In this document: positions 11,870-45,121 of the stretch, piece by piece
Position numbering within the stretch: position 1 is the first letter of the stretch
Layout of the letters: the number at the start of each line of letters is the position of its first letter
Notes under the pieces: model-generated
What the model saw: the letters and a program-made list of their open reading frames with translations, nothing else
Database searches by the model: none
Told to the model about the DNA's origin: nothing
Made by a program: the position numbers and the translations under genes
Source: Candidatus Methylomirabilota bacterium
Lineage (GTDB): Bacteria; Methylomirabilota; Methylomirabilia; Rokubacteriales; CSP1-6
Assembly: GCA_035649755.1 (NCBI GenBank)
Contig: DASRIY010000377.1
Coordinates: 1 to 61,573, forward strand
Length of the DNA: 61,573 bases
Direction: 5' to 3'

Positions 11870-11879
11870 TTGAGAGATG

Positions 11880-12076: not shown

Positions 12077-12157
12077 GCTGGCCGTCGAGCCTCGCAAGTC
12101 GGCGCCGAGCTGATACCACTCATAGGTATCAAAATGACGATCGACGAGCGCTGGCGA

Positions 12158-12682: not shown

Positions 12683-12757
12683 GCGAGCAGCGTCGCGGGC
12701 GATCGCACGCGCGTCAATGTCCAGCGTGCGATACGCCGCCGCGCGCGGCTCGCCCGG

Positions 12758-12994: not shown

Positions 12995-13005
12995 GGTTCC
13001 TCCCG

Positions 13006-14418
13006 TCAGTCCAGCGTCGGACGATGTTGGGCCCACGGCCGGGCGCGCTCGAAGGCCGCGGAGGCCCTGAGCACTGTGACGTCATCGAAGCGACGGCCGA
13101 CGATCTGCAAACCGATCGGCAGTCCGTCCTTCGTGAAGCCGCACGGCACCGACGCGGCCGGCTGGCCCGTCATGTTGAACGGGTATGTGAACGGAATCCA
13201 GGCGTATGGCTCGACCAGCTTGCCGGCGATCTCCGTCGGGTTATCGAGCCCCACCGGAAACGGCGGGCACGCGATCGTCGGCGTCAGCAGCAGATCGTAC
13301 GTCTCGAAGAGTGTCTTCGGGTGCGACCACCACGCGAGCCGATCGAACCACGCCTGCACGTACTTCGTCGGCGGGTTCTTGAGCGTCTGCTCGATCAGCC
13401 GGTAGAGCCCGGGCTCGATGTCGCCGCGGCGGTCGAGGTACGGCGCCATGCGCGTCGCGATGCCGCCGCAGAAGAGCTCGCCCCACGCCTCGCGCGGCGA
13501 GGGCCAGCGGGGCGACACCTCCTCGAGGCGGCAGCCGAGCTCACGGAAGGCGCGCGACGCCTTCGCGCACGCCGCGCGCACCTCCGGGTCCACTGCGTCG
13601 GCGAACCCGAGATCGTCGGCGTACGCGACGCGCAGCCCTTTGAGGCTCCCGCGCAGCGCCTTCACGTAATCCACGGGCGGGCCGGGCAGCGAGTACTGAT
13701 CGCGCTCGTCGGGGCCGGCGCACACCGTCATCATCAGCGCGGCATCCGCCACCGTTCGGGTGAGCGGGCCAATGTGCGAGAGGCTCCACGCGCCGCTCGT
13801 CGGGTACGTCGGGATGCGCCCGTAGGACGGCTTGTGGCCGAAGATCCCGGTGCACGAGGCCGGGATGCGGATCGAGCCGCCGCCGTCGGTGCCGATGTGG
13901 AGCGGCCCCAGGCCCGCCGCCGCGGCCGCCGACGCGCCGCCGCTGGAGCCGCCCGGCGTGCGCTCGAGGTTCCAGGGATTGCGCGTGATCCCGAAGACCA
14001 GGTTGTGAGTCGCGCCGATCCAGCCGAAGGTCGGTGTGTTGGTCTTGCCGAGCATGATGGCGCCGGCCGCCTTCATGCGCTCGACCATCGGCGCGTCCTC
14101 GGTGGGAACGTTGTCGCGGTAGAACGGCGTGCCGAAGGTCGTCCGCACGCCGCGGGTGATGACGAGGTCCTTCACCGAGAACGGAACACCGTGGAGCGGC
14201 CCGAGCCGCGCGCTGCGCCGCGTGAGCGCGCGCTCGGCGGCCTTCGCCTCGCGCCGCGCTTGCTCGTTGGTCAGCGTCACGAAGGCGTTCAGCTTTGGAT
14301 TGACGTCCTCGATGCGCGCCAGCACCGCGCCGATCACGTCCACCGGCGAGACCTTCTTCTTCCGGATCAGCCCGGCCAGCTCGGTCGCGGACAGCCAGGC
14401 GAGTCGCGTGTCAGGCAT
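13006..14418 (-). CDS. Amidase (amidase-signature family, GatA-like)
   Basis: [15 protein letters not shown] signature and conserved Ser-cisSer-Lys region; 470 aa. Confidence 0.9.
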
Positions 14419-21798: not shown

Positions 21799-24700
21799 TC
21801 AGAAGCCGAGCGCGCGCACCTCGTCGCGGAAGCGCTGCACGTTCTCGAGCTTGATGTCCTCGTAGCCGCGGATGACGTCCGGCAAGCTCGCCAGCTTCAC
21901 GGCGCGCTCGTAGCTTTCGGGCGACAGACCGACGAGCGCCTTGTCCACGAGGCCGCGATACTCACCGGGAAGCTGCCGCTCCACGCGCCGGACCGCGGCG
22001 AATCCGAACGGGTCGATCCAGGTCCCGCGCAGCGTCTTCATGGCCGCGAGCGTGCGGAAGCACCGCTCGAACCACGTGCCGAGCTTGATCTTCCGCTTGA
22101 GGCCGAGGGCTCGGAAGATGGGCGGGTGCAGGTTGTACTGGAGGGTGACGCCGCCGGGGAACTCGGCCTCGAGCGCCCGCGCGATGTCCGTCTTGAGATG
22201 CAGGCGGGCCACCTCGTACTCGTCCTTGAACGCCATCAGCTTGAAGAGATAGCGCGCGACCGCCTCCGACAGGCGCGTTTCGCCGGGCACCGCCGCCGCC
22301 TCCGCCTCGCGCACGCGCCGGACGAAGCCGACGTACTCACTGGCGTACGCGGCGCTCTGATAGGCGATCAGCTCGGGCACGCGAATCTCCAGGAGCCGCC
22401 TGAGCTCTTCCGTGGCGTCCACGCGATCGACCAGCGCGCGCGCCTCCTTCGACAGCTCCGGCGTGCTCGCCACGGCGCCGAGACGCTGCCGGGTGACCGT
22501 CTGGACCCAGGCCGGGTCGGCGACGAGGAGCCGGCCCGCGCGGAACGCGTGCGTGTTCATTTGCACCGAGACGCCGTTGAGCTTGATCGCGTCCTCGATC
22601 GCGTCGGCGCTCACCGGGATGGCGCCGGCCTGCCAGGCGGCGCCCAGCACGATCATGTTGGCCGCCATGTGGTCGTCGAAGAGCGTCTCGGCCAATCCCA
22701 GCGCGTCGAGATAGACGTTCTCGTCTTTCCGGGTCACGCGGTCGATCGACGTGATGAGCCCGTTCGCCTCGGGAAACTCGACGGTCGTCGACGTCACCAT
22801 GGCGCCGGTCGGCACCTGGCTGGTCGAGACGACCGCGATCGTCCGGTCCGGGCGCGCGTGGTCGAGATTCTGCGGCGTGGTGGCGACGAGCACGTCGAAT
22901 CCGATGTAGCAGTCGGCCGAGCCTGCCGAGACCTTGTTGGAGGACTCGGTGGCGTGCTCGAAGATCTTCAGGTGCGAGACGACCGGTCCGCCCTTCTGGC
23001 TGAGACCGGTCTGATCGAGGCCGCGGACGTGCTTGCCGTCGAGGAGCGCCGCGGTGCCCAGGATCTGGTTCACCGTGACCACGCCGGTGCCGCCGATGCC
23101 CATCATGAAGATGTTGGCGTCCTCGGGCACGTTGAACGGGGGCGCCGGCAACGTCTGGTCGACGATGAAGACGCGGCGCTCCTTCTTCTTGGTCATTCGT
23201 GGCACGACCGTCAGGAACGACGGGCAGTCGCCTTTCAGGCACGAGTAGTCCTTGTTGCACGATGACTGATGGATCTGGGTCTTGCGCCCGAACTCCGTCT
23301 CGACCGGGTGCACCGACAGGCAATTGCTCTTCACGCCGCAGTCGCCGCAGCCCTCGCAGACGGCCTCGTTGATGACCACGCGCATCGCGGGATCGGGCAG
23401 CTTGCCGCGCTTGCGCAGCCGCCGCTTCTCCGCGGCGCACCGCTGGTCGTAGACGAGCGCCGTGACACCCGGGATGTCGCGGAGCACCCGCTGCGCCTCG
23501 TCGAGCCGGTCGCGATGCCACACCTCGACGCCGGGCGCCCACATGGTCGACTTCGGGTACTTGTCGGGCTCGTCGGTCATCACGATGATGCGCTTGACGC
23601 CCTCGGCCGCGATCGACCGCGTCAGCTCGGGCACCGGCATGGCGCCGGCGGCGTCCTGCCCGCCCGTCATGGCGACCGCCGAGTTGTAGAGGATCTTGTA
23701 GGTGATGTTGGCGCTCGACGCGACGGCCTGCCGGATGGCCAGCGAGCCCGAGTGGAAGAACGTGCCGTCACCCAGGTTCTGGAAGAGGTGCTTGGTCTCG
23801 GTGAACGGCGCCATGCCCACCCACTGCGCGCCCTCGCCGCCCATGTGGGTGAGACCCATCGTCTTCCTGTCCATCAGCAGCGCCATCCCGTGGCAGCCGA
23901 TTCCGGCGCTGGCCATGGAGCCCTCAGGCAGCACGGTCGAGCGGTTGTGCGGACAGCCCGAGCAGAAGTACGGCTGGCGCGACAAGGTCAGCGGCGCGGG
24001 CCGCTGGCGCAGCGCCTCCAGGAGCGCCACGCGCGCCGTGATCGAGTCGAGGTGCACGCGGCGCTCGAGACGCGCGGCCACGATGTGGGCGATCCGGTCG
24101 GCGTCGAGCTCGCTGTCGGCCGGCACGAGCGGACGGCCGTTCTCGTCGGACTTGCCGACGACGCGCGGGCGCTCGGCCTGGTTATAGAGGATGTCGCGGA
24201 TGAACATCTCGCAGAACGCGCGCTTCTCCTCGACGACCAGGATCTCCTCGAGACCGCGGGCGAACTCACGAACGGTGCCCGGCTCCATCGGGAACAGCAT
24301 CTCGAGCTTGAGCAAGCGGATGCCGTACTGGCGGAGCGCCGCGTTGTCGAGACCGAGCTCGGTGAGCGCCTCGCGCAGGTCGTAGTACGTCTTGCCGGGT
24401 GCGACGATGCCGAGCCAGGCGTCGGGCGTGGGAATCGTGATGCGGTTGAGCCGGTTGGCGGCCGCGAACATCTTCGCGGCCTCGAGCCGGCCGTAGTGGA
24501 TCTCGCGCTCGGCTTCAAGACCCCAGGGCGGCATCAGCATCGGCGTCTGTCGCGCCTGCCAGGGTCGGCCCTCGTAGACGAAGCCCGGATCGGCGATCAC
24601 GATGCGATCGGGCGCCACCTCGGCAATGGCGATCTCGTCGGCGACATTCGTCACGATCTTGAAGCCCACCCAGAGCCCCGAATAGCGCGACAGCTCGAAG

Positions 24701-25260
24701 CCGAGTCGGCCGAGGTCGAGGATTTCCTGCGTGTTGCCCGGAAAGAGCACGGGGAACAGCGCGTCGTAGAATGCCACCTCTGAGTGCGACGGGATCGTGG
24801 ACGACTTCGAGAGCGGGTCGTCGCCGCCGAGCGCCAGCACGCCTCCGTGACGGCCGACGCCGGCGAAATTGGCGTGCTTGAAGATGTCGCCAGTCCGGTC
24901 CACGCCGGGGCCCTTGCCGTACCACATGCCGAGAACGCCGTCGTATTTCGGCTGCGGGAACAGGTTGGCGAGCTGGCTGCCGTAGACCGCCGTCGCGCCG
25001 AGATCTTCGTTCACCCCCGAGAGGAACACGACGTTGTGCTCACGCAGCAGGCCGGGATTGCGCTCGAGCGTCAGGTCGAGGCCGCCGAGCGGCGAGCCGC
25101 GATAGCCGGAGATGAGCGTGGCGGTGTTGAGCCCGCGGCGCTTGTCGGCCCGGTGCTGATCGAGAGGCAAGCGCACCAGCGCCTGAACGCCCGAAAGGAG
25201 GATCTGTCCTTCTTCCTGGCGATACTTGGCGTCCAGGGTGAATTCGCGCGGCGTCGCCAT
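21799..25260 (-). CDS. Indolepyruvate:ferredoxin oxidoreductase family protein (fused alpha/beta)
   Basis: 1153 aa; TPP-binding region (GDGTFFHSG), 4Fe-4S motif CEGCGDCGVKSNC, and the N-terminal EFTLDAKYRQEEGQILLSGVQALVR typical of fused IOR. Confidence 0.9.
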   Translation of the reverse strand: MATPREFTLDAKYRQEEGQILLSGVQALVRLPLDQHRADKRRGLNTATLISGYRGSPLGGLDLTLERNPGLLREHNVVFLSGVNEDLGATAVYGSQLANLFPQPKYDGVLGMWYGKGPGVDRTGDIFKHANFAGVGRHGGVLALGGDDPLSKSSTIPSHSEVAFYDALFPVLFPGNTQEILDLGRLGFELSRYSGLWVGFKIVTNVADEIAIAEVAPDRIVIADPGFVYEGRPWQARQTPMLMPPWGLEAEREIHYGRLEAAKMFAAANRLNRITIPTPDAWLGIVAPGKTYYDLREALTELGLDNAALRQYGIRLLKLEMLFPMEPGTVREFARGLEEILVVEEKRAFCEMFIRDILYNQAERPRVVGKSDENGRPLVPADSELDADRIAHIVAARLERRVHLDSITARVALLEALRQRPAPLTLSRQPYFCSGCPHNRSTVLPEGSMASAGIGCHGMALLMDRKTMGLTHMGGEGAQWVGMAPFTETKHLFQNLGDGTFFHSGSLAIRQAVASSANITYKILYNSAVAMTGGQDAAGAMPVPELTRSIAAEGVKRIIVMTDEPDKYPKSTMWAPGVEVWHRDRLDEAQRVLRDIPGVTALVYDQRCAAEKRRLRKRGKLPDPAMRVVINEAVCEGCGDCGVKSNCLSVHPVETEFGRKTQIHQSSCNKDYSCLKGDCPSFLTVVPRMTKKKERRVFIVDQTLPAPPFNVPEDANIFMMGIGGTGVVTVNQILGTAALLDGKHVRGLDQTGLSQKGGPVVSHLKIFEHATESSNKVSAGSADCYIGFDVLVATTPQNLDHARPDRTIAVVSTSQVPTGAMVTSTTVEFPEANGLITSIDRVTRKDENVYLDALGLAETLFDDHMAANMIVLGAAWQAGAIPVSADAIEDAIKLNGVSVQMNTHAFRAGRLLVADPAWVQTVTRQRLGAVASTPELSKEARALVDRVDATEELRRLLEIRVPELIAYQSAAYASEYVGFVRRVREAEAAAVPGETRLSEAVARYLFKLMAFKDEYEVARLHLKTDIARALEAEFPGGVTLQYNLHPPIFRALGLKRKIKLGTWFERCFRTLAAMKTLRGTWIDPFGFAAVRRVERQLPGEYRGLVDKALVGLSPESYERAVKLASLPDVIRGYEDIKLENVQRFRDEVRALGF

Positions 25261-26170: not shown

Positions 26171-26755
26171 TCAAGGTCGGCGGAGCCGTCCGAGCGCTCG
26201 TTTTTCCCGCCTGGCTTTCTTGGAAAGCCGGCGGGGGTTCCCCCGCTTCTCCCGGGGGTTTTCCGGAAGGTCAAGATCCCGGTCCTTGGTCCAAATCTCA
26301 GCCGGATCGGACGGGTTGTCCGCGGGGCCAGAGCCACGCCGCTCCTTGCTCAGGCCACCCTCGGACCAAACCGGCCTCGAGGACCCCGCTACAACATCCA
26401 GAAACTGCTCAGCGGTGAGAGCCGCCGCCCCGGCTCGGCGGGCGGCGTCCTGGATCCGGCGGTCGGAGCTGACGACGACCGCCCCGCTCTGCCACTGGCG
26501 CGCCAGGCGAATGAGCTCGTCGTCGGCCGTGTGGGGCGGGCGGGAGAAGATCGTCCGGATCCGCCCATGCGACGGGCCGCCGCCGGCCACCCGCGCCCCG
26601 TCGAAGACCACCGTGAACTCGTCGCGCGGGTCGCGGTGAGCGCGCGCCAGCAGGTGAAGGAGCGCCCGCCGTCCGGCCTCGAGGCTTTCGGCCTCGCGGG
26701 CCCGAAGATCCGGCTCGCGCCGGATGACGTTGTAGCCGTCGATGAGCCAGCGCAC
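26171..26755 (-). CDS. NYN-domain RNase-like protein (YacP/Rae1 family) with a basic C-terminal tail
   Basis: MRWLIDGYNVI...FTVVFDG...VVSSDRRIQDAARRAGA pattern of the YacP NYN domain; the tail is rich in K/R (KRGNPRRLSKKARREKR). Confidence 0.8.
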   Translation of the reverse strand: MRWLIDGYNVIRREPDLRAREAESLEAGRRALLHLLARAHRDPRDEFTVVFDGARVAGGGPSHGRIRTIFSRPPHTADDELIRLARQWQSGAVVVSSDRRIQDAARRAGAAALTAEQFLDVVAGSSRPVWSEGGLSKERRGSGPADNPSDPAEIWTKDRDLDLPENPREKRGNPRRLSKKARREKRALGRLRRP

Positions 26756-26796
26756 GGCCTCAGTATCCCCCGCCCCACCGGCCGGAAAGGCGATTC

Positions 26797-27975
26797 GTGG
26801 ACGAACCGGCGCTGACCCTCATCGGGGGCCAGCCGCTCACGGCGGACGTCGCGCGGCGGCTCCCCCAGGGTGTGGTGGTCAGGTTGATGGTCGACCAGCC
26901 GGCCGTCCGGCCCGTCGACGTCGGCGACGTCGTCGAGGTCCTCCCCGGCGACGGCGCCCGCCGCGGCGACACCGTGCTCTTCGCCCACGACGGCCGGTGC
27001 GAGCTCGCACGCCTCATCCGGCGCGCCGGCTCCAGCGTCGACATCGCGGTGGGCCCCGAGGGGCGGCGCATCTCGCTTTCGGCCGGCGCCGTGCTCGGCG
27101 TCGCGAGCGCGCTCGAGCAGGGCGATCTGCTCTTCGATCTCTCGCGCGGGCGCTGGCGCGCGGCCGGCCGGATGGCGGCGGCCTTCCCGGCCGGGATGGG
27201 CCCGCTGCTGGGATTTATGGCGCGGCTCGAGCGACTGCGCCGGCCGTTCTTTCCTCCGCTCTTCATGGGCGGCGAGCAGCAGATTCTAGATCGGCTGACG
27301 GAGGCCTACGACGTGGAGGCGGAGATCATCGGCCGTGAGACCGCGCTCCTGCCGGAGGAGCAAGCCCTGCTTGAGCGTTACCTGAGGCGCGGCAGCCGAC
27401 TCCTCGATGTGGGCTGCGGCGCGGGCCGCGAGGCGGTGGGGTTCACGCGGGCCGGGCTCTCCGTAGTGGGGATCGACGTGGCGCCGGCCATGATCGACCG
27501 GGCCCGCGAGCGGGCGCAAGCCGCGGGGCTCGCGATCGAATTCGTGGTCGGTGAGCCCCTGACCTGGCCGGCGCCCGGCGCGCCGTTCGACGCGATCTAC
27601 TTCAGTCCCGGGATCTATTCGCACATCCCCGGTCGTGCCCGACGCGTGCGAACGCTGGCTCGGCTGCGCGGCCTTCTGGCCCGCGGCGGGCTGATCGTCC
27701 TCGGGCCGATCCTGTCGCCGCCGCTCCCGCGCCTCTCGCGCACCCGGCTGGTCGATGCGCTGCGCCGCGTCGGCCGGGCCGTCGGCGTCCGGCGGCTCGC
27801 CGAGCCGGGCGACCATTACTATCGCGGCCACGCGCTCGAGCGCACACCTGTGTCGTATCGCTACGTCCACCGTTTCCGTGACGGCGCTGAAGCCGAGGCC
27901 GAGCTGGCCGACGCGGGCCTGCGGGTGACCGATCGCCTCGACGAGACCTGCTGGATCGCGCGCCCGGCTATCTGA
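26797..27975 (+). CDS. Two-domain protein: N-terminal S24/LexA-like beta-barrel-like region plus class I SAM-dependent methyltransferase
   Basis: GTG 26797 with GGAAAGG upstream. The C-terminal half has motif I LLDVGCGAGREA and post-I VVGIDVAP. The N-terminal ~110 aa (GDVVEV...GDTVLFAHDGRCELARLIRRAG) resembles the peptidase encoded at 32301-32756 but lacks the GxSM motif. Confidence 0.7.
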   Translation: MDEPALTLIGGQPLTADVARRLPQGVVVRLMVDQPAVRPVDVGDVVEVLPGDGARRGDTVLFAHDGRCELARLIRRAGSSVDIAVGPEGRRISLSAGAVLGVASALEQGDLLFDLSRGRWRAAGRMAAAFPAGMGPLLGFMARLERLRRPFFPPLFMGGEQQILDRLTEAYDVEAEIIGRETALLPEEQALLERYLRRGSRLLDVGCGAGREAVGFTRAGLSVVGIDVAPAMIDRARERAQAAGLAIEFVVGEPLTWPAPGAPFDAIYFSPGIYSHIPGRARRVRTLARLRGLLARGGLIVLGPILSPPLPRLSRTRLVDALRRVGRAVGVRRLAEPGDHYYRGHALERTPVSYRYVHRFRDGAEAEAELADAGLRVTDRLDETCWIARPAI

Positions 27976-29110
27976 GCTGTCGCACCATTCGCCAGCAGAC
28001 GCGGACCGGATGCAATGCGCGATAGACGGGAACCTGCCACGGCGCATCGATCGAATAGTGAAGCCTGAGCCAGGTGGCCGACGGAAAGAAGGTCCACGCA
28101 AGCACGCGCAGCACGTCGACGCCGCGGTCCATCAGGAGCGTCTGCGCCGGATAGATGCGCGCCTCGCTGAGCGAGGCGCCGAGGCTCGGCGGCCATGACG
28201 AGTCGATGCAGGCAACGACGGCCGCCCGGCGCAGCCGGCCCAGCGTGATGCGGTCGGCGAGGCCGGCTGGCAGCGGGGTTCCGAACGAGGCGCTGACGAC
28301 GCCGAGCGTCCAGTCGAGGAGAGCGCCGATGCGCCAGCGCCGGGCTTCATCCACGATGCGGCTCCAGTCGAGCTCGCGAGCGTGCCCGCGAATCAGCGCG
28401 TCGATGTCCGCATACCAGAGGACACGGGCGAAGTCGGAGCCGAGCGTGAGGTGCAAGACCAGGTGCAGCAGCGTGTCCTCGGGGCAGAGCGCCAGGCTGC
28501 GCCCCTCGGCCAGAGCGAGCGGGCGCGCCCGGCTCCAGAGCCCCTCGTGGTCGACGCGCACGACGCCGTCGAAGCGGAGATAGCGCGCGATGTCCCAGTG
28601 AAGATCGAGGAGAACTCCGTCGCGGACCAGCTCGGCGAAGCACCGCGATTCCCCGAGGCGCTCGGCCTCAGGCCCAGGCGTCCGATAGCCGAGCCGGGCG
28701 AGCACCGCGATCGCGCGAAGTCGATCAGCGGGTCGCACCAGCAGGTCGATGTCGGCCATCGGCCGCAATCCCGGCTCGGGATAGACGGTGTGCGCGAGCA
28801 CGATGCCCTTGAGGGTGATGGTCTCGATCCCGGCCTCACGCAAGGCACTCGTGGCCTCACCCCAGCGCGCGGCGAGCGCGGCGCCGCGCGCCCAGAGGCT
28901 TTGCGCGCCGGCCGTCAGTCGTCGCTGCGCTTGGGATGGCAGATGGCGAAGCAGATCGAGCCGGCGGAGGTTCCAGTGAACGAGAGGGACAACGCCCTCG
29001 CCATGAGCGCGGTCGACGAGGAGGCTCCAGTCGACGGGACCGGCGGCGATCTCGGCAAGCCGGCGATCGGCGCTCGTGTCGGGCGCGGCCCGAGCGCCCA
29101 GGAGGAGCAC
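27968..29110 (-). CDS. Nucleotidyltransferase family protein (NTP_transf_5 / PF14907-like)
   Basis: Typical layout: ...IAAGPVDWSLLVDRAHGEGVVPLVHWNL...TLKGIVLAHTVYPEPGLRPMADIDLLVRP...LDLHWDI. Start set at GTG 29110 (AGGAGG 5 nt upstream). The track ORF extending to 29431 overlaps the precursor and the rSAM 3' end. Confidence 0.7.
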   Translation of the reverse strand: MLLLGARAAPDTSADRRLAEIAAGPVDWSLLVDRAHGEGVVPLVHWNLRRLDLLRHLPSQAQRRLTAGAQSLWARGAALAARWGEATSALREAGIETITLKGIVLAHTVYPEPGLRPMADIDLLVRPADRLRAIAVLARLGYRTPGPEAERLGESRCFAELVRDGVLLDLHWDIARYLRFDGVVRVDHEGLWSRARPLALAEGRSLALCPEDTLLHLVLHLTLGSDFARVLWYADIDALIRGHARELDWSRIVDEARRWRIGALLDWTLGVVSASFGTPLPAGLADRITLGRLRRAAVVACIDSSWPPSLGASLSEARIYPAQTLLMDRGVDVLRVLAWTFFPSATWLRLHYSIDAPWQVPVYRALHPVRVCWRMVRQLR

Positions 29111-29148
29111 GCAGGCCTCCTGATCGGGCGCCAGCGGCGTCGACGGGT

Positions 29149-29310
29149 CTAGGAGGTCGAGCTGGTTCGCGACCCTTTCCCCATCGAGGTACGCTGGGCG
29201 GCGCTGCAGGTGCCGGTGGTCGCGCGGCAGCAGGTGGTCGTGTCGGCCCCGAAGATGCTGCTGGGCTCCAGCGTCGGTTTCTCGTACGGGCGCTTCTCCT
29301 GGGTGGCCAC
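29149..29310 (-). CDS. Putative RiPP precursor peptide (53 aa)
   Basis: GTG 29310 lies 6 nt after an AAGGAG that sits in the last codons of the rSAM gene. GC3-rich codons throughout. Peptide: M/V-ATQEKRPYEKPTLEPSSIFGADTTTCCRATTGTCSAAQRTSMGKGSRTSSTS. It appears in the track only as the tail of a 387-aa spurious ORF (29149..30312). Confidence 0.6.
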   Translation of the reverse strand: MATQEKRPYEKPTLEPSSIFGADTTTCCRATTGTCSAAQRTSMGKGSRTSSTS

Positions 29311-29312
29311 CC

Positions 29313-30446
29313 TCAACTCCTTTCGGCGGTGCGAATCTGGTAGAGGCGTCGATTGGCGCCGGCGACGGTCCTCGCCCGCTCGTGGCAGCGCTTCCAGTCG
29401 CCGTCGGCGCGGTCGAGCAGGTTGTCGCCATGACAGCGGTTGCAGAAGCCGACCAGCTCGCACGACGCGCATTCCGGCAGATCGGCGTAGCGCTGGACCG
29501 AGAGCAAATCGCGAATCGCGGGCGGCGGCGAGGTCCAGAGCTCGCGGAACGGTGTCTGGCGGACGTTGCCGATCGGCACCCGGAACGCGATGCACGGGTA
29601 GACGTTGCCGTACGGGTCGATGCAGCAGCCGTTGGTCGCCGGGCCGCAGGTCCCGCGCTGGAGGGCGACGTCCTCGGGCCGGCCTTCCTGCGGATCGAGC
29701 TGCTCGCTCCATCGGGAATCGCGCATGTACTGGAACAGCTCGTCGGCGTCGAGCTGGTACTCCTGGGGTACGTGGCCGTCGCGGGGCACGGTACCGTCGA
29801 TTCGCGGGCTCACCTCGCAGCTGTAGGTGTGGGTGAAGACGCCGAGGTCCTTGCCCAGCCGGTCGAGCGCGGCGAGCCCGGCGAGGTTCGGCTTCATCAC
29901 GACCGTCTTGAGGTAGACCCGCACGCCGTGGCGCTGCAGGCGCTCGATCGCCGCCATGAGACGCCGGAAGGATCCCGGCACCCGCGTGATCGCGTCGTGC
30001 ACCTCCGGGTCCGCCGAGAAGATCGAGAGCTCCACCGTCAACGGCTCGAGCGCGGCCAGGCGCTCCACCTTCGCCTCGGTGAGGCCGATGCCGTTGGTGA
30101 AGACGCGGTAGGCAAAGCCGCGGCGACGCGCGTGCTCGGCGATGTCGAAGAAATCGGGCCGCACCATGACCTCGCCGCCCGACAGCGTCAGGTAGAGCCC
30201 GCCCATGTCGGCCAGCTCGTCGAGCACATGACGGATCTCGTCGAGCGTCAGCTCGCGGCGGCGCACCTCCCGCTCGCGCCCGTGCTCGACGACGCAGTAG
30301 CAGTGCACGCACTGCTCGTTGCAGCGATAGGTCAGCTCGAGGTGGACGTTGAGCGGCGTGCGGTTGCGGTCCGCCTTGGCGCTGATGAGCGCCAGGAGCG
30401 ACTGGTCGCCGAGGCCGGCGTTCTGGGCGCAGCCTTCGAAGATCAT
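29313..30446 (-). CDS. Radical SAM enzyme with C-terminal SPASM domain (peptide maturase type)
   Basis: CNEQCVHC (CX3CX2C) near the N-terminus. SPASM cysteines: CGPATNGCCIDPYGNVYPC ... CASCELVGFCNRC. ATG 30446 overlaps the PqqD stop (ATGA). Confidence 0.9.
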   Translation of the reverse strand: MIFEGCAQNAGLGDQSLLALISAKADRNRTPLNVHLELTYRCNEQCVHCYCVVEHGREREVRRRELTLDEIRHVLDELADMGGLYLTLSGGEVMVRPDFFDIAEHARRRGFAYRVFTNGIGLTEAKVERLAALEPLTVELSIFSADPEVHDAITRVPGSFRRLMAAIERLQRHGVRVYLKTVVMKPNLAGLAALDRLGKDLGVFTHTYSCEVSPRIDGTVPRDGHVPQEYQLDADELFQYMRDSRWSEQLDPQEGRPEDVALQRGTCGPATNGCCIDPYGNVYPCIAFRVPIGNVRQTPFRELWTSPPPAIRDLLSVQRYADLPECASCELVGFCNRCHGDNLLDRADGDWKRCHERARTVAGANRRLYQIRTAERS

Positions 30447-30754
30447 CGGCTCTCTCCCTTGCGCCGGCGCTCGACGGAGACCAGCTTCGCGTCGGCGAGC
30501 CGCTCGATGAACTCCACCGTATCGGCGCGGATGGTCGCCTCGGGCGCCGCGAACTCGCCCGCCACCACGCCCACGATGTCGTCTACGCTGCGCGCGCCGT
30601 CGCACAGCTCCCAGATCCGCGCGCCGACGCTGTTGAGAGGATAGAGCAATCCGCTCTTGACGTCCACGACGAGCGCCTCCGTGTCGAGCGTCCGCCACGG
30701 CATCGACCGGCGACGCGGAAACGCCTCAGCCCAGTCCATCTCAGTCCAGTCCAT
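30443..30754 (-). CDS. PqqD-family protein (RiPP recognition element)
   Basis: ~100 aa with ...VVDVKSGLLYPLNSVGARIWELCDGARSVDDIVGVVAGEFAAPEATIRADTVEFIERLADAKLV, the classic PqqD/RRE pattern. Alternative ATG at 30739. Confidence 0.8.
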   Translation of the reverse strand: MDWTEMDWAEAFPRRRSMPWRTLDTEALVVDVKSGLLYPLNSVGARIWELCDGARSVDDIVGVVAGEFAAPEATIRADTVEFIERLADAKLVSVERRRKGESR

Positions 30755-31613
30755 CGAGGTACTCCCAGAGCTCGGCGCGCGGGGCGAAGGCCAGCTCGTA
30801 CGCCGGCGTCCGCTCGGCCAGCGCCGCGAGCGCGCCCAGGAGCTCTGCGGCGACGCGCGGGTCGCGCTTGGGCAGCATGACCTCCGGGAAGGCGCGGGCG
30901 ACCGTCTCGGCCGGCGAGAGACGCCGATGCGAGAAGCGCTCGGCCTTGCGGAGAAAGCAGAGACCTCCCAGCGGCGCGCGCCGGTTGGCGCGGGCCATCC
31001 CGGGTCCGCCCGAGCCGTAGAACGGCGTGGCGTGCGCACTGTAGGCGCGCGGCCCCGGCCGCAGCGCGATCGTCTCGTCGTTGAGGACCGGGCGAATGCC
31101 GGCCAGCTGCGCGATGGTGGTTTTGCCGCTCCCGGACGGTCCCGAGAACACCCAGGCGCGCCCGCGCACCACAACGGCCGAGGCGTGGAGCAGGACTCCG
31201 CCGGCCCGCGCGAGGAGGAACCCGCACAGCATGCGAAACAGGTCGGGGTTGAGCGCCGGGCCCGGGCCCACCCTGAAGCGCACGCGGCGGCCGGCCAGGT
31301 CGCCGGTGGCGCGCGAGGGATGGCTGGCGAGCGAGAAGTGGCCGTTACACCACGTCGCGAGCGGACGGGCCACGCGTCCCCGGCGGTAGCGCTCGGTTGC
31401 GGCCACCGCGACGGTGACCGTCGGCACCCGCCGCGAGACGAACGGCGCGAAGCGCTCGGCGACCCACGCCCGATCGGGCGCGGCGAGGCCCGTCACGCGA
31501 AAGACGAATCCGGCGACCTCGATGCAAGGCGCGCCCTCAGCCAACGACCGTAATCCATAGGCGCGGCTCGGCCGGCGGGGCCCCAGCCCCGCGACGGCCT
31601 GCAGCGCGCACAT
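30741..31613 (-). CDS. HPr kinase/phosphorylase-related kinase (HprK C-terminal-like, P-loop present)
   Basis: LLHASAVVVRGRAWVFSGPSGSGKTTIA...LNDETIAL is HprK-like. Alternative TTG start at 31544 would give an 8-nt overlap with the upstream gene instead of 77 nt. Confidence 0.7.
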   Translation of the reverse strand: MCALQAVAGLGPRRPSRAYGLRSLAEGAPCIEVAGFVFRVTGLAAPDRAWVAERFAPFVSRRVPTVTVAVAATERYRRGRVARPLATWCNGHFSLASHPSRATGDLAGRRVRFRVGPGPALNPDLFRMLCGFLLARAGGVLLHASAVVVRGRAWVFSGPSGSGKTTIAQLAGIRPVLNDETIALRPGPRAYSAHATPFYGSGGPGMARANRRAPLGGLCFLRKAERFSHRRLSPAETVARAFPEVMLPKRDPRVAAELLGALAALAERTPAYELAFAPRAELWEYLDGLD

Positions 31614-32316
31614 CCGCAGCTCTAGCCGCTCGCCGTGCTGAGCGCCGCGGCCGGCCTGCGGGCGCCGAGACGATCAGGCTTGCCAGCTCCAGGGTGCGTA
31701 CGACCGCTTCGCGGCGGCGGTCGGCCTGCCACACGGCCGGAAGCATGGTGGCGAGGGCACGCGCGCCCCCGGCCGCCGTCTTGAACGAGACGTCGCCGGA
31801 AGCGATCAGGGCGCTGCGAGCCCGGCCCCGAGCGGGCAACGGCGTAGCGGGATCGACGAACGGCGTGAGACGCATGGTCGTCCCGTCTGATCGCGGCGTG
31901 GCCGCGACGTAACCCGCTGGAGCGCGAAGCAACAGCGTGTCGCGCTCCAGAAGCCACAGCGCCGAGAGCGTGCGCATCATGTTGGCCACGCCGAAGCCGC
32001 CGGCAATCCGCACCGCCGCACGGCCGCGACGCACGTCGACCGTCGCGCGGTAGTAGCCGGTCGTCACCAGGAGGCTCCGGCCGTGTCGGCGCACGCGCGG
32101 GGTATCGTCGACGGTCTCCTCGTCCGCCGGCGCGCCGGCGCGACGCCGGAAATTGTCGTCGTAGGTGATCGAGACCGTCACGTCAGGACGCCGAGTGGTC
32201 AGGAATTCGGGGCGATCTCGGGCCCAGAACCCGGGCTTGGGATTACGGGACACGAGGCGGAACGCGATGCCTGCGATGTCGACGGTGTCGGCGTAGGAGC
32301 TCAGGCGCGCCGCCAT
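31537..32316 (-). CDS. HprK-related paralogue lacking a Walker A motif (pseudokinase-like)
   Basis: Its N-terminus MAARLSSYADTVDIAGIAFRLVS parallels EGAPCIEVAGFVFRVTG of the downstream kinase. The equivalent of the P-loop region reads LLLRAPAGYVAATPRSDG. ATG 32316 overlaps the peptidase gene by 16 nt. Confidence 0.5.
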   Translation of the reverse strand: MAARLSSYADTVDIAGIAFRLVSRNPKPGFWARDRPEFLTTRRPDVTVSITYDDNFRRRAGAPADEETVDDTPRVRRHGRSLLVTTGYYRATVDVRRGRAAVRIAGGFGVANMMRTLSALWLLERDTLLLRAPAGYVAATPRSDGTTMRLTPFVDPATPLPARGRARSALIASGDVSFKTAAGGARALATMLPAVWQADRRREAVVRTLELASLIVSAPAGRPRRSARRAARAADVRAAGRRGAGAPPAEPRLWITVVG

Positions 32317-32756
32317 GCGCGCCGGCGTGCCGATGCCAGCGCCGCGCCCCCGAGCGAAAGCGCCGCCTTGACGGCGGCCTGGGCGCGACGCGCCGGTCCC
32401 GTCAGGTCGACCACCGCGCCATCGCGCTCGAGGGCCGTCACGACCCCGAGGACCTGAGCGGGCCGCACGTGCTCCGGCCCCGCGCCGCGGTGATCGGCTC
32501 GGGTCATCAGGAGGGCGCCCCGGCGGCCGATCATGCGATGACAGACGACAGTCCCCTCGCACTCGTACGCGAGCAGGTCGCCGAAGCGGACGCGAGCGGC
32601 AGGGGCCACGAGGATCCGCGAGCCGCTCGCCAGCAGCGGCCGCATGCTCCTGCCGCGCACCGGAAGCCAGGTCGGCTCGCCGGAGTCGATCCGCTCGCGG
32701 ACGACCTCGGTGACCAGCGGGCGCCACACGGCAGAGACGAGCGCCATCAGCGTCAT
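32301..32756 (-). CDS. S26/S24-family serine peptidase-like protein (Sec11/SipW-like Ser-His signature)
   Basis: 151 aa; VRGRSMRPLL (GxSMxP nucleophile motif) and VVCHRMIGRRG (resembles the IVHRV motif of ER/archaeal-type signal peptidases). First gene of the operon. Confidence 0.55.
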   Translation of the reverse strand: MTLMALVSAVWRPLVTEVVRERIDSGEPTWLPVRGRSMRPLLASGSRILVAPAARVRFGDLLAYECEGTVVCHRMIGRRGALLMTRADHRGAGPEHVRPAQVLGVVTALERDGAVVDLTGPARRAQAAVKAALSLGGAALASARRRAWRRA

Positions 32757-32783
32757 CCTACTATCTATAGCTACGCATCCGCT
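32757..32783. promoter_or_regulatory. 27-bp AT-rich divergent intergenic region with a palindromic -10-like core
   Basis: CCTACTATCTATAGCTACGCATCCGCT. On the minus strand TATAGA lies 7 nt upstream of the peptidase ATG (leaderless geometry). On the plus strand TATAGC lies 12 nt upstream of the GGT ATG. Confidence 0.35.
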
Positions 32784-34412
32784 ATGATCGCCCGCATGAC
32801 TGTCCCCACCCGCTGGGCGGAGTGCCGGGCCAGCGGCGGACTCGTCGCCGCGCCGCACGCGCTGGCCGCCGAGGCCGGCGCGGCGATCCTCAGGCGCGGC
32901 GGCAATGCTGTCGATGCCGCGATCGCCGCCGGTGCCACGATCGCGGTCGTCTACCCGCACATGAACGGCGTGGGCGGCGACAGCTTCTGGCTGATCTACG
33001 ACGGCCCGAACCGGGCCCTCCGCGGGCTGAACGCGGCGGGCCGCGCGGCGGCGACGGTCGACCTGGAGACCTATCGGGCGCGCTTCGGCACCGCCATCCC
33101 GCCGCGCGGCGGCGCGGCCGCGCTGACCGTCCCCGGCGTCGTCTCCGGCTGGTGGGAAGCTCATGCCCTGAGCCGCGACACCCTGGGCTCGCGGATCGGC
33201 TGGAGCGCGCTTCTCGAGGACGCGATCACCCGCGCCCGTGACGGCTTTCCACCCTCGCCCGGGCAGCGCCGCGAGACAGCCGACGCCGACGATCTCTTCG
33301 GCGCCACCGCGCCGGCCGATCTGCGCCCGGCGCTCTGGCGCATCTTCGATCCCGCGCTGCTGGCGCGCGAGCGTTTCGTGCAGGCCGACCTCGGCGCGAC
33401 GCTCGAGGAAATCGCGCGGGGCGGCGTCGAGTCGTTCTACCGCGGCGCGCTCGGCAGGCGAATCGCGGTGGCCGCCGCCGCCGCCGGCAGCCCGCTGACT
33501 TTCGAGGATCTGGCCGCGCACCGGGCGGAATGGGTGGAGCCCTTGCGCGTTCGCTACCGGAACGGGGAGGCGGCGAGCCTGCCCCCGCCGACGCAGGGCT
33601 TCGCCGCCCTGGCGATCCTGTCACTGCTCGAGGGCTTCGACATCGGCGCGCTTCCCGAGGCTGACTACGTTCATCTGGTGGTCGAGGCGACGAAGGTTGC
33701 CTTCGAGGACCGCGACCGCTATCTGACCGACCCGACGTTCGAGCGGGTCCCGGTCGAGCATTGCCTGGACCCGGCTCATCTGGCCGAGGGCCGCCGCCGC
33801 ATCTCTCGGCGCGCGGCGCAGCAAGCGCGCGGCGCGGCGCTCGAGGGCGACACGATCGCCATCGTGGCGGCGGACGCGGCCGGCAACGCGGTGTCGGTCA
33901 TCCAGAGCCTCTACTGGGAATTCGGTTCCGGCGTGATCGCCGGCGACACCGGGATCCTCCTGCAGAATCGCGGCGCGTTCTTCTCGCTCGATCCGGCGCA
34001 TCCCAACCGGCTGGCACCGCGCAAGCAGACCGCGCACACGCTGATCCCGTCGATGTACCTGGTGAACGGCTGCCCGCATCTGGTTTACGGCACGATGGGC
34101 GGCGAGGGTCAGCCGCAGACGCAGGCGACGCTGGTCACGCGCAGCCTCGACCGCGGGCTCGGGCCACAGGCGGCCGTCGAGGCGCCGCGCTGGCTCTACG
34201 GGCGCACCTGGGGCGATGAGACGCGGGCGCTCAGGCTCGAGTCGCGCTTCGACAGCGACGTGCGCGAGTCGCTCCGCGCGCGCGGCCACGACGTCGAGAT
34301 CGTCGAGGACTGGAGCGATCTCATGGGCCACGCCCAGCTCATCCGCATCGATCCGGACGGCCTCCGCGGCGGCTCCGACCCGCGGGCCGACGGAGCCGCG
34401 CTCGGCTCTTGA
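32784..34412 (+). CDS. ggt: Gamma-glutamyltransferase family protein
   Basis: GGNAVDAAIAAGATIAVVYPHMNGVGGDSFWLIYD N-terminal motif; Thr nucleophile region GDTIAIVAADAAGNAVSVIQS; GTMGGEGQPQ. Confidence 0.9.
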   Translation: MIARMTVPTRWAECRASGGLVAAPHALAAEAGAAILRRGGNAVDAAIAAGATIAVVYPHMNGVGGDSFWLIYDGPNRALRGLNAAGRAAATVDLETYRARFGTAIPPRGGAAALTVPGVVSGWWEAHALSRDTLGSRIGWSALLEDAITRARDGFPPSPGQRRETADADDLFGATAPADLRPALWRIFDPALLARERFVQADLGATLEEIARGGVESFYRGALGRRIAVAAAAAGSPLTFEDLAAHRAEWVEPLRVRYRNGEAASLPPPTQGFAALAILSLLEGFDIGALPEADYVHLVVEATKVAFEDRDRYLTDPTFERVPVEHCLDPAHLAEGRRRISRRAAQQARGAALEGDTIAIVAADAAGNAVSVIQSLYWEFGSGVIAGDTGILLQNRGAFFSLDPAHPNRLAPRKQTAHTLIPSMYLVNGCPHLVYGTMGGEGQPQTQATLVTRSLDRGLGPQAAVEAPRWLYGRTWGDETRALRLESRFDSDVRESLRARGHDVEIVEDWSDLMGHAQLIRIDPDGLRGGSDPRADGAALGS

Positions 34413-39583: not shown

Positions 39584-40234
39584 TCAGGTGATGTCGATCG
39601 GCTCGTCGACGAATACCGTGTACGTGCGCGGCCGCCCGCGCTCGGCGTCGGCCGGATTCACGTACATGATCGACGTCCGGCCGCGGATCTCGCGCGGGAG
39701 AATCGCCACGCGGATGAAGCTCGTGTCCTCGGCCTTCGACGCGACGGCCAGAACGGGCTCGCGCCCGCTCTCGAACCACGCGCCGCCTGGCGTGACGCGC
39801 CGAGCGGGCGCGTCGCCCACGGTCACCTCGAGCGCGCCGGCGATGAGACAGCGGATGCCGCCACCCCGGTGGCGGTGCGGGAGCGCCACCCCGCCCAGCG
39901 CGAAGTCGACCCGGTCGGCGCGTATCAGGTATTCCGCGCGCGGGTCGAGGTCGATCGGATGCTCGAGGAGCACCTTCGCGTCGCCGCCCGCCGGCGCCGT
40001 GCCCCGGATCAGCTCGTAGCGCAGCAGGGCCGCGCCGGCGTCCCCCGCGGCCACTTCGCATGCGCCTGCGCCGTGCCAGGCCTGCCCCTCGACAACTCGC
40101 GCGTCGCCCGCGCCGCTCGCCACCGAGATGGCGCTGCGTCGCGCGTAGAGGACGCGGTTGAGCGCGGGAAGCCGCAGGCGACCGGCCGCGGGCAGTCGGT
40201 CCTCGCACAGGCGCAGTGTGTAGTCTCCGGACAT
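39584..40234 (-). CDS. Cupin-domain protein
   Basis: 216 aa with a beta-rich double-barrel-like pattern; ALPHRHRGGGIRCLIAGALEV resembles a cupin motif. Lies 18 nt upstream of crcB on the same strand. Confidence 0.45.
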   Translation of the reverse strand: MSGDYTLRLCEDRLPAAGRLRLPALNRVLYARRSAISVASGAGDARVVEGQAWHGAGACEVAAGDAGAALLRYELIRGTAPAGGDAKVLLEHPIDLDPRAEYLIRADRVDFALGGVALPHRHRGGGIRCLIAGALEVTVGDAPARRVTPGGAWFESGREPVLAVASKAEDTSFIRVAILPREIRGRTSIMYVNPADAERGRPRTYTVFVDEPIDIT

Positions 40235-40284
40235 GGCCGGGCGTCATTGTACGCCGCGCGGGCTCCGTGATACGTTGCGGAACG

Positions 40285-44920: not shown

Positions 44921-45121
44921 TCAGTACCCGCCGCCCGAGGACGTCTCGCAGCGCGTTCCGCGCCACGTTCCGCCCGAGCGCTCGCAATCCTTCTGGGCAG
45001 TCGCCCCCGAGCCCGGCGCCGAGGCCACGGATTCCGCGCACCCGGCGACGCTCGCCATCAAGAGCAGGGATCCGATGATCGTTCGCAGCGTGGTTGCATC
45101 GCGCCTCACTTCAATTCTCAT
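44921..45121 (-). CDS. Small lipoprotein (66 aa)
   Basis: Lipobox LLLMASVAGC; its ATG overlaps the stop of the CHASE2 cyclase gene (ATGA at 45118-45121). Confidence 0.4.
   Translation of the reverse strand: MRIEVRRDATTLRTIIGSLLLMASVAGCAESVASAPGSGATAQKDCERSGGTWRGTRCETSSGGGY

Follow-up and report, generated by a model that had tools for sequence, protein, structure and literature searches.

A putative RiPP cassette with a radical-SAM/SPASM enzyme and an ScmC-family kinase-like protein in a Methylomirabilota contig

Gene content and conservation of the locus

The window (the whole stretch of DNA analyzed, 61,573 nucleotides) holds a compact run of minus-strand genes that is met by a convergent gene on the plus strand:

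32301..32756, minus strand: S24/S26-like leader-peptidase candidate, 151 aa (alternative start 32747; Pfam Peptidase_S24)
31537..32316, minus strand: degenerate ScmC paralogue, 259 aa (hhalign and BLASTP against ScmC)
30741..31544, minus strand: ScmC-family P-loop kinase-like protein, 267 aa (PF27840; alternative ATG start 31613)
30443..30754, minus strand: discrete PqqD-type RiPP recognition element (RRE), 103 aa (Pfam PqqD)
29313..30446, minus strand: predicted radical-SAM (rSAM)/SPASM peptide maturase, 377 aa (Radical_SAM and SPASM)
29317..29322, minus strand: AAGGAG ribosome-binding site of the precursor gene (read from the sequence)
29149..29310, minus strand: predicted precursor peptide, 53 aa (GC3, gene calls, conserved counterparts)
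27968..29110, minus strand: PF14907 (NTP_transf_5) nucleotidyltransferase, 380 aa (Pfam; ADIDLLV DxD motif)
26797..27975, plus strand: convergent methyltransferase, 392 aa (Methyltransf_25/11/12 and PCMT matches)

An earlier note on this DNA had described seven co-directional minus-strand genes with little intergenic space. All seven open reading frames were found (7/7), with overlaps of 16 nt between the S24-like gene and that of the 259-aa paralogue, 8 nt between the paralogue and ScmC genes (given the ScmC start at 31544) and 14 nt between the ScmC and PqqD genes, and with an ATGA shared by the PqqD and rSAM genes. Its gene assignments also held, with refinements for the kinase-like protein and the peptidase, and the methyltransferase at 26797-27975 is to be added to its count of seven. 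Pfam returned Radical_SAM, SPASM, PqqD, NTP_transf_5 and Peptidase_S24; PF07475 (Hpr_kinase_C) was not matched by the ScmC protein at E 0.01 or better. On ENA contigs with an identical rSAM protein, independent gene callers predicted the same eight genes, including the 53-aa open reading frame. The seven-gene arrangement is far beyond chance: dozens of unrelated contigs carry these genes together with the peptide.

Conservation was counted over 83 loci, drawn from several phyla and anchored on the rSAM gene. ScmC accompanies the rSAM enzyme most constantly (74/83), followed by PqqD and the S24-like peptidase (63/83 each), and NTP_transf_5 lies less than 8 kb from the rSAM gene at about half of the loci (40/83). 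Many of the loci are accompanied by ABC exporters. The predicted cassette for an uncharacterized modified peptide is real and widely conserved, and it joins an rSAM enzyme to a leader motif, a chaperone, a kinase-like protein and a nucleotidyltransferase of the sort that usually belong to lasso peptides.

The predicted precursor peptide

The 53-codon open reading frame has a GC3 of 0.93 and starts with GTG 6 nt after an AAGGAG that lies, as had been noticed, within the final codons of the rSAM gene (29322-29317). Its proposed role as a Cys/Thr/Ser-rich precursor is borne out by gene calls on the identical metagenome contigs and by 56 close cluster representatives (63-94% identity), in which the leader is invariant and the core variable. 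The leader spans about residues 1-25 (29310-29236) and holds Y9-x-x-P12-x-L14; the core spans about residues 26-53 (29235-29152), is abundant in Ser, Thr and Cys, and contains C27, C28, C35 and the C-terminal S53. Among 31 close homologues the leader, with Y9, P12 and L14, is again invariant and the core varies, with the three cysteines and S53 conserved.

The precursor claim was open to the objection that no such peptide is conserved beside rSAM/PqqD/HprK homologues. Recognizable counterparts adjoin the homologous ScmC, PqqD and rSAM genes in 61 of the 83 loci, mostly in Acidobacteriota and also in Methylomirabilota/NC10, Omnitrophota, Chloroflexota and Planctomycetota; a local precursor was not detected at about a quarter of the loci. 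These peptides have in common a lasso-type YxxPx[LIVMF] leader and two or three conserved Cys, and they vary in the inter-Cys loop and in the tail. The stress that the earlier note had laid on the C-terminal Ser is strongly reinforced, as Ser53 does not vary within the close clade and Ser is the last residue in 56 of the 61 peptides. The spacing C-x9-C-x6-S is fixed in 43 unique acidobacterial precursors, and the acidobacterial cores contain few Ser or Thr, the terminal Ser alone being invariant among these. On this conservation, the 53-aa product is the precursor, and it co-occurs with the cassette enzymes.

The YxxPxL sequence at positions −17 to −12 is the element bound by the B1 RREs of lasso systems (PMC10368454). 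The precursor has this leader motif in the form Y(−17)xxP(−14)xL(−12), as defined in PMC10368454, together with a PqqD-type RRE in the cassette, and when the lasso spacing is applied the invariant T24 falls at position −2. A lasso core, however, has Asp or Glu at position 7-9 for the isopeptide ring, and neither residue occurs in the precursor after D23. A lasso peptide was rejected because the core has neither Asp nor Glu, and no Asn-synthetase-like cyclase was found among the scanned window genes or in the annotated relatives. In agreement with the earlier note, PF00733 was absent from 20 likely genes chosen from the window's open reading frames of at least 330 aa; it was also absent from the Pfam-annotated neighborhoods L001-L003 and L086-L088, which include five relatives. 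The reported lack of a transglutaminase-like B2 protease agrees with the precomputed Pfam annotation, which contains no PF13471 from about 10 kb upstream to about 5 kb downstream of the rSAM gene. A lasso cluster with its cyclase and B2 protease at another place in the genome would account for the leader motif, the B1-like RRE and the two accessories, kinase and nucleotidyltransferase, but this is barely credible in view of the absence of an Asn_synthase domain from the scanned window genes and annotated relatives, a core that offers no Asp or Glu for a macrolactam, and the rSAM enzyme as the constant partner.

Enzymes of the cassette

The rSAM protein matched Radical_SAM (E 1.1e-25) and SPASM (E 2.6e-9) in Pfam. 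It carries CNEQCVHC and seven SPASM cysteines (C267, C285, C326, C329, C335, C338 and C349), and the CX3CX2C and SPASM cysteines are invariant in 16 homologues. With the Pfam match of its neighbor to PqqD (E 4.3e-18), this confirms the earlier reading of a PqqD protein next to an rSAM enzyme with a full SPASM cysteine set. A second rSAM enzyme is absent from the window and from its relatives. The best partial NCBIfam match of the PqqD protein is the lasso PqqD chaperone (37 bits, below cut-off). For the rSAM enzyme, no NCBIfam equivalog or curated family cut-off was reached and all scores were far below, which leaves it outside the families with other established substrates that the earlier note had considered; MftC (125 bits, cut-off 265) and PqqE (101 bits, cut-off 381) are among the best partial matches. 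The structures nearest to it are SkfB (the nearest solved), PqqE, SuiB and anSME, which span C-C crosslinking and oxidizing enzymes besides thioether synthases.

The pairing of PqqD with a SPASM rSAM enzyme, as in the PQQ and mycofactocin pathways, the partial MftC and PqqE matches, and a core that is unusually well conserved over many Terriglobia genera with fixed spacing could mean that the peptide gives rise to a small cofactor or signaling molecule, in the manner of PQQ or mycofactocin, and not to a peptide natural product. We consider this quite improbable: every cofactor equivalog scored far below cut-off, the precursor contains neither a PqqA-like Glu-x3-Tyr nor an MftA-like C-terminal Gly-Val-Tyr, the inter-Cys loop and tail do vary, and exporters are found at many loci.

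The assignment of the 30741-31544 product as an HprK-like kinase stood in part. Its P-loop GPSGSGKT is present, but its family is ScmC: PF27840 is assigned to the identical protein in precomputed annotation and to nearly all of 110 homologues, except for a few truncated or fused ones. The HprK-related NCBIfam models TIGR04352 and TIGR04355 gave 17 and 15 bits against cut-offs of 200. An AF2 model (pLDDT 91) compared by Foldseek matched PEPCK at 1.5e-7 and HprK/P at 1.5e-4 to 1e-3; the predicted fold is PEPCK/HprK-like with PEPCK the better match, and "HprK-like" is valid at the superfamily level only. Residues H120, G135xSGxGKT and D156 are invariant in 29 homologues. The product of 31537-32316, described earlier as an HprK-like paralogue without a P-loop, matched no Pfam family and proved to be a degenerate ScmC copy by hhalign against the ScmC profile (95.5% probability, E 1.5e-8, residues 3-147) and by BLASTP against the neighboring ScmC (E 2e-4). 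It has lost the His as well as the P-loop, is confined to a Rokubacteria-like clade, and is probably a non-catalytic partner.

In lasso systems, HprK-type kinases phosphorylate the C-terminal Ser of linear precursors, after which an NTP-transferase puts hexoses on the phosphate (PMC6993621; PMC8498205), and the RRE stimulates the kinase (PMC10368454). BsfK, a characterized lasso kinase, targets Ser3 and not the C-terminus (PMC10368454). This last observation, the better match to PEPCK, the unmatched PF07475 and the place of MftC among the best partial scores of the rSAM enzyme would fit a different role for ScmC and its dead paralogue: as a scaffold that depends on ATP, as a chaperone, or as a kinase whose target is a small molecule or a residue other than the terminal Ser. 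Ser53 would then be recognized by the rSAM enzyme or the peptidase, or be the rSAM target, as with MftC on a C-terminal residue. ScmC also tracks the terminal Ser imperfectly: at locus L076 no ScmC is detectable and the peptide still ends in Ser, and at L055 a weak ScmC match accompanies a peptide ending in Pro. Against this, none of the catalytic His, P-loop and Asp varies, no partner of the rSAM enzyme is more constant than ScmC, the pairing of ScmC with the NTP-transferase mirrors PsmK/PsmN, which act on a C-terminal Ser, and the MftC score is less than half of its cut-off. We regard a role for ScmC other than as the Ser kinase as unlikely.

Phosphorylation followed by elimination is the established chemistry of class III-V lanthipeptides. 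Given the abundance of Ser, Thr and Cys in the window's core, ScmC might phosphorylate Ser/Thr for elimination, with Cys adding to the dehydro residues and the rSAM enzyme tailoring the product otherwise. Such a route is very improbable, as the loci share no conserved homologue of a lyase or cyclase, the acidobacterial cores are poor in Ser/Thr, and the rSAM gene is the anchor of the family.

The peptidase had been called S26-like. It is indeed signal-peptidase-like, but with an S24/S26B-like Ser/His pair in place of the classical Ser/Lys of S26A. It matched Peptidase_S24 (E 6.3e-6, 26.3 bits against a cut-off of 23.3) and bears a GxSMxP serine and an HR histidine, which are conserved together with a GD motif in homologues aligned from about 33 related loci. 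The same serine motif, the His replacing the Lys base and the GD motif are found in ER/archaeal-type signal peptidases (S26B: SipW, Sec11; TIGR02228). Unlike these, the protein is short (~150 aa), has no clear membrane anchor, and scored 26 bits with TIGR02228 (archaeal-type signal peptidase I) against a cut-off of 52. Its setting suggests a leader peptidase that acts in the cytoplasm.

The PF14907-like nucleotidyltransferase was assigned correctly, its product matching NTP_transf_5 with E 3.7e-49. The C-terminal part of the convergent gene product is a class I SAM methyltransferase, and its N-terminal ~130 aa share 30% identity with the S24-like protein (E 5e-6) but have Ala in place of both Ser and His; by sequence, this domain is predicted to be a copy of the S24-like domain that has lost its catalytic activity. 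We propose the methyltransferase as an eighth member of the system because its gene lies within the operon in the NC10 locus L086 and it has this domain in common with the peptidase. In the Planctomycetia locus L071 the gene adjoins ScmC.

Proposed pathway and related systems

We consider it probable that the locus is a RiPP biosynthetic cassette of a widespread, experimentally uncharacterized family that works as follows. The discrete PqqD protein would bind the YxxPxL leader and present the peptide to the rSAM/SPASM enzyme, which would abstract hydrogen and make intramolecular crosslinks through the conserved cysteines, most likely sacti/ranthi-type thioethers. ScmC, with its degenerate paralogue as a partner, would then act on the peptide while it is linear and still bears the leader, phosphorylating its C-terminal Ser in the manner of PadeK/PsmK, and the PF14907 nucleotidyltransferase would elaborate the Ser phosphate with a hexose or nucleotide, like PsmN. 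The methyltransferase, recruited via its dead peptidase-like domain, would methylate the peptide, and the Ser/His signal-peptidase-like enzyme would cut off the leader either directly ahead of the first Cys or one residue earlier. We infer crosslinking on Cys and then phosphorylation and decoration of the terminal Ser; counting against this pathway are an rSAM modification type that is not readable from sequence, the PEPCK likeness and unmatched PF07475 of ScmC along with the Ser3 target of BsfK, and the partial occurrence of NTP_transf_5, imperfect ScmC/Ser tracking and missing local precursors among the loci.

With the sactipeptide and ranthipeptide maturases (SkfB, AlbA, StsB, CteB and PapB) the system shares an rSAM enzyme with a SPASM/twitch domain, predicted RRE-dependent recognition and a Cys-containing core; such an enzyme, an RRE and such a core are all present here. 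In contrast to those maturases, in which the RRE is an N-terminal fusion, the RRE here is a separate protein, and the rSAM sequence scored far below their family cut-offs. The combination of a kinase-like protein, a nucleotidyltransferase and a signal-peptidase-like protein is not known for these classes.

The closest systems are the SynChlorMet cassette and the paeninodin-type lasso clusters. The former was reportedly described by Haft with the models TIGR04248 (ScmD), TIGR04249 (ScmC), TIGR04250 (ScmE) and TIGR04251 (ScmF). It has the same core of an ScmC-family protein, a PqqD-like protein and rSAM/SPASM enzymes, and both systems are defined by bioinformatics only. The earlier note could match the combination to no characterized RiPP class; the core itself has this bioinformatic precedent. 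On the present proteins the four models scored far below cut-off (ScmC, 24.9 bits against 125; ScmD, 28.4 against 100; ScmE, 79.7 against 400; ScmF, 62.3 against 400). SynChlorMet has two rSAM/SPASM enzymes whereas the present system has one, and the S24-like peptidase, NTP_transf_5, methyltransferase and identifiable precursor set the present system apart.

PsmN is, we take it, a member of PF14907. The paeninodin/pseudomycoidin-type clusters (PadeK/PsmK, PsmN, B1 RRE) differ from the present cassette in having an Asn-synthetase-like cyclase, a B2 protease and an acidic core residue; here cyclase and B2 protease are replaced by an rSAM/SPASM enzyme together with a Ser/His S24/S26-like peptidase, and the kinase-like protein is of the ScmC family and not PF07475. 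Both have a YxxPxL leader with a discrete PqqD-type RRE, a P-loop kinase-like protein of the HprK/PEPCK superfamily with a conserved metal-binding Asp, an uncharacterized nucleotidyltransferase and a precursor ending in Ser. Tailoring by O-methyltransferases also occurs in lasso systems.

Gene set and precursor peptide

Seven minus-strand ORFs were recovered exactly where the earlier note had placed them, including the 16-nt overlap between the genes for the peptidase and a 259-aa protein and the ATGA shared by the PqqD and radical SAM (rSAM) genes. The 259-aa protein and ScmC genes overlap by 8 nt if the latter starts at 31544, and ScmC and PqqD overlap by 14 nt. The cassette and the gene convergent with it are as follows:

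32301-32756 (-), S24-like peptidase
31537-32316 (-), 259-aa protein
30741-31544 (-), ScmC
30443-30754 (-), PqqD
29313-30446 (-), rSAM enzyme
29149-29310 (-), 53-aa precursor peptide
27968-29110 (-), NTP_transf_5 nucleotidyltransferase
26797-27975 (+), methyltransferase, 392 aa

Pfam searches bore out the families previously proposed for PqqD (PqqD, E 4.3e-18), the nucleotidyltransferase (NTP_transf_5, E 3.7e-49) and the rSAM enzyme (Radical_SAM, E 1.1e-25; SPASM, E 2.6e-9), in which the CNEQCVHC motif is present. No family in Pfam or NCBIfam matched the 259-aa protein or the 53-aa ORF. An identical rSAM protein is encoded on ENA and JGI metagenome contigs, and independent gene calls on the ENA contigs predict this gene set, 53-aa ORF included. 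Among named MAGs, Candidatus Rokubacteria and NC10 come closest, and the source is probably a soil bacterium of the Methylomirabilota ("Rokubacteria") type. A promoter and terminator scan of 26500-33500 returned nothing above shuffle expectation, and no second cassette or further precursor copy was found in the window.

The small ORF, earlier proposed as the precursor, has the attributes of a real gene. Its GTG start (29310) lies 6 nt after an AAGGAG (29322-29317), and in this window of ~70% G+C its GC3 of 0.93 is similar to that of the bona fide genes. These features, together with conservation across phyla, rule out a chance ORF. A database search with the peptide returned 56 cluster representatives, nearly all of 53 aa, at 63-94% identity. 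When 31 precursors were aligned, K6, R7, P8, Y9, K11, P12, L14, S17, S18, F20, G21, A22 and T24 were invariant, as were R29, K45 and the C-terminal S53; C27, C28 and C35 were almost invariant, and residues 30-52 were variable. A conserved leader combined with a variable core, as in this alignment, is the classic picture. In a Rokubacteria MAG (rSAM 68% identical) the gene directly 3' of rSAM encodes ...KRPYERPTLE...FGAE...CCKFTNATCS...SSAS-stop, and in an NC10 MAG (63% identical) the corresponding gene encodes ...KRPYERPRLE...CCRRTTGTCS...STTS-stop.

Precursors were sought across related loci with a leader-motif scan that used no C-terminus criterion, followed by an iterated HMM search seeded from its picks. 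The expectation that the small ORF would be conserved was borne out, with counterparts beside homologous genes in 61/83 loci, and 56/61 of these peptides end in Ser. Among acidobacterial precursors, of which KKPYQKPAFRHERVFETMALSCGKVQSTQGQCHFNRKNS is an example, 43 unique peptides fit the pattern KKPYxKPxFRxExVFETxAL-x-CGK-x7-C-x6-S; their leader is of low entropy and their loop and tail vary, but the C-x9-C-x6-S spacing is fixed. In Acidobacteriota the gene is found upstream of that for the peptidase, in Methylomirabilota after rSAM. Four precursor variants matched no family in NCBIfam. The acidobacterial locus L030 carries two copies (2022-2261 and 6191-6424) with identical cores. Precursor genes in the related loci L025 (2030-2467) and L027 (6058-6423), and P0286, look frameshifted or read through, with the leader intact and the Cys/Ser tail gone; either decay of the cassettes or errors of assembly may account for this.

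Enzymes of the cassette

The SPASM cysteine set of the rSAM enzyme consists of seven Cys (C267-x12-G-x4-C285, C326-x2-C-x5-C-x2-C338, C349), which, like the rSAM motif, are invariant in 16 homologues. The enzyme matched no family with an established substrate, and all NCBIfam equivalogs scored far below cut-off: AhbD (130 vs 500), MftC (125 vs 265), PqqE (101 vs 381), StsB (98 vs 625) and ScmE (80 vs 400). Roles in PQQ or mycofactocin biosynthesis were rejected on the PqqE and MftC scores, and an anaerobic sulfatase maturase (anSME) because no NCBIfam equivalog is approached; the acidobacterial homologues likewise approach none. By sequence the nearest solved structures are SkfB (6.8e-14) and PqqE (5.7e-12), and the nearest folds to the model (pLDDT 83) are SkfB, PqqE, SuiB, BlsE, MoaA and anSME. 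The absence of an equivalog and the SkfB/PqqE-type neighbors therefore indicate a peptide-maturase-like SPASM enzyme, the modeled fold of which does not discriminate its chemistry.

The putative kinase had been described as HprK-like. On the ENA contigs with the identical rSAM it is annotated as PF27840 (ScmC), and 29 homologues all retain H120, G135-x-S-G-x-G-K-T and D156. Against PDB sequences, a profile search picked up ATP-PEPCK (3.3e-6); the AF2 model (pLDDT 91) matches PEPCK (1.5e-7) and HprK/P (1.5e-4 to 1e-3), with a TM of about 0.5 against the HprK catalytic domain. The description therefore holds at the superfamily level, given both fold matches, but not at the family level, where the protein is ScmC and the PEPCK match is the stronger. 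The 259-aa protein is, as suggested, a P-loop-less paralogue: residues 3-147 align with the ScmC profile (95.5% probability, E 1.5e-8), and both the His and the P-loop are lost. Only the Rokubacteria-like clade was found to carry it.

PqqD scored best in NCBIfam with the lasso B1 chaperone model, below cut-off. The peptidase matches Pfam Peptidase_S24 (E 6.3e-6), and its GxSMxP, HR histidine and GD are kept in homologues aligned from ~33 related loci. These motifs and a best partial NCBIfam match, below cut-off, to archaeal-type signal peptidase I suggest a Ser/His protease resembling S26B. Searching PDB sequences with the nucleotidyltransferase gave no match.

The methyltransferase, a proposed eighth member of the system, is convergent with the cassette in the window. 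In the NC10 locus it is part of the operon (rSAM, peptide, methyltransferase, NTP_transf_5), and in a Planctomycetia locus it adjoins ScmC. Its N-terminal domain (26797-27330 (+), ~130 residues) is homologous to the cassette peptidase, with which it shares 30% identity in BLASTP (E 5e-6); there are also profile matches in three loci. Ala replaces both the catalytic Ser and the catalytic His, and the domain may be a dead peptidase reused to bind the precursor.

Related cassettes and comparison with lasso peptides

An rSAM-profile scan of genomes, one for each species, yielded 80 loci, mostly in Acidobacteriota/Terriglobia and the remainder in Omnitrophota, Anaerolineae/Dehalococcoidales, Planctomycetia, Deltaproteobacteria, Nitrospirota and Thermomonas. 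Across 83 non-redundant loci, profile searches detected ScmC in 74, PqqD in 63, the S24-like peptidase in 63, NTP_transf_5 within 8 kb in 40 and the methyltransferase in 3. The ScmC family, with 3,000 representatives (50%-identity clusters) at E <=1e-30 and 16,496 at <=1e-10, is concentrated in Acidobacteriota and Methylomirabilota. Comparing the presence of ScmC with a terminal Ser gave a mixed outcome, and too few of the 83 loci lacked ScmC for a firm comparison.

ABC exporter genes (ABC ATPase, ABC-2 permease) recur near the cassette in many acidobacterial loci; none were found near it in the window. A conserved secreted protein of about 613-615 aa that has no Pfam match recurs near the cassette in the acidobacterial locus L041 (9284-11125) and 28 others. 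Connected-component clustering of ORFs across loci fused overlapping high-GC ORFs and was informative only for these ABC transporter genes and the 613-aa protein. The distant relative L087, ordered rSAM, peptide, S24-like peptidase, ScmC, PqqD, has a gene for a 1008-aa Peptidase_C25 (gingipain-like) protein (11147-14173) directly after PqqD.

Several features recall lasso peptides. The leader follows the lasso YxxPxL rule, this element at -17 to -12 being recognized by lasso B1 RiPP recognition elements (RREs) (PMC10368454). With lasso spacing T24, an invariant residue, comes at -2 and T26 opens the predicted core; for the acidobacterial peptides the predicted junction is AL|[AST]C. Signal peptidases prefer small residues at -3/-1, which this predicted junction would also fit. 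The earlier note's statement that the window has no lasso cyclase was upheld for the 20 likely genes scanned among its ORFs of at least 330 aa, in none of which Asn_synthase occurs; these comprise dcw-cluster and assorted metabolic, transport and signaling genes. The domain was also absent from the annotated neighborhoods of relatives, and the core contains neither Asp nor Glu; a lasso cluster was rejected on these grounds. The paeninodin/pseudomycoidin lasso family is the nearest characterized biology, but its defining cyclase is absent here. SynChlorMet, the nearest defined system, combines ScmC and ScmD/PqqD with two rSAMs, whereas this locus has one and falls below all four SynChlorMet equivalog cut-offs.

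Proposed maturation and other genes of the window

The locus is an rSAM/RRE-dependent RiPP system with hybrid lasso-derived accessories and a candidate leader peptidase resembling signal peptidases, to which a precursor family is now assigned. Its genes co-occur, its precursors share the features described and its catalytic motifs are retained. By analogy, PqqD would bind the leader as an RRE, and the rSAM enzyme would crosslink the peptide through its conserved Cys. ScmC would then phosphorylate the terminal Ser, as PadeK and PsmK do on linear, leader-bearing precursors (PMC6993621; PMC8498205); the lasso kinase BsfK is stimulated by the RRE (PMC10368454). The nucleotidyltransferase could elaborate the Ser phosphate, to which PsmN adds one or two hexoses (PMC6993621). 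Methylation by the methyltransferase and leader removal by the Ser/His peptidase would complete the set.

We regard it as possible, if somewhat doubtful, that these cassettes form a distinct and very widespread soil RiPP class. Here the lasso toolkit of leader, RRE, kinase and nucleotidyltransferase would be kept, rSAM/SPASM would stand in for the cyclase and a Ser/His signal-peptidase-like protein for the B2 protease, and the product would be Cys-crosslinked with a phosphorylated, further glycosylated or nucleotidylated C-terminal Ser. Were this so, the strong core conservation across Acidobacteriota would suggest a signaling, metal-binding or envelope role, not a hypervariable antibiotic. 

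The cassette itself shows lasso recognition and tailoring modules redeployed around another core enzyme. It brings a candidate RiPP leader peptidase of a new type, as well as a methyltransferase whose substrate-binding domain appears to be a dead copy of that peptidase. Cataloguing of ScmC-type cassettes goes back to the definition of the SynChlorMet TIGRFAMs and, to our knowledge, neither substrate nor product is known; a literature search, outside which most subscription journals fell, found no paper describing the cassette. A precursor family is now attached to them, marked by its lasso-like leader, by Cys residues at fixed spacing and by a Ser at the end, so co-expression with mass spectrometry can address the product question directly. 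Acidobacteriota and Methylomirabilota are abundant in soil, difficult to culture and little explored for RiPPs.

A gamma-glutamyltranspeptidase (GGT) gene, 32784-34412 (+), is divergent from the cassette, the start codons being ~30 nt apart. GGT is also next to the cassette at L003 (Rokubacteria) and no more than 8 kb away in acidobacterial L061 and L078; the proximity could reflect a functional link or mere synteny. Elsewhere the window holds a dcw (cell-division/cell-wall) cluster, 209-10620 (-), and further genes:

209-1591, 2682-4088, 5185-6960 and 6585-8132 (-), Mur ligases (dcw cluster)
1584-2681 (-), FtsW/RodA (dcw cluster)
4096-5175 (-), MraY-type glycosyltransferase 4 (dcw cluster)
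8083-10620 (-), PBP transpeptidase with PASTA domain (dcw cluster)
21799-25260 (-), 1153-aa ORF that by eye resembles a fused indolepyruvate/2-oxoacid:ferredoxin oxidoreductase (putative)
40216-42246 (+), unusual fusion of trypsin-like peptidase, rhodanese and cyclic-nucleotide-binding domain
45118-47256 (-), single 712-aa protein with CHASE2 sensor, adenylate/guanylate cyclase and PilZ
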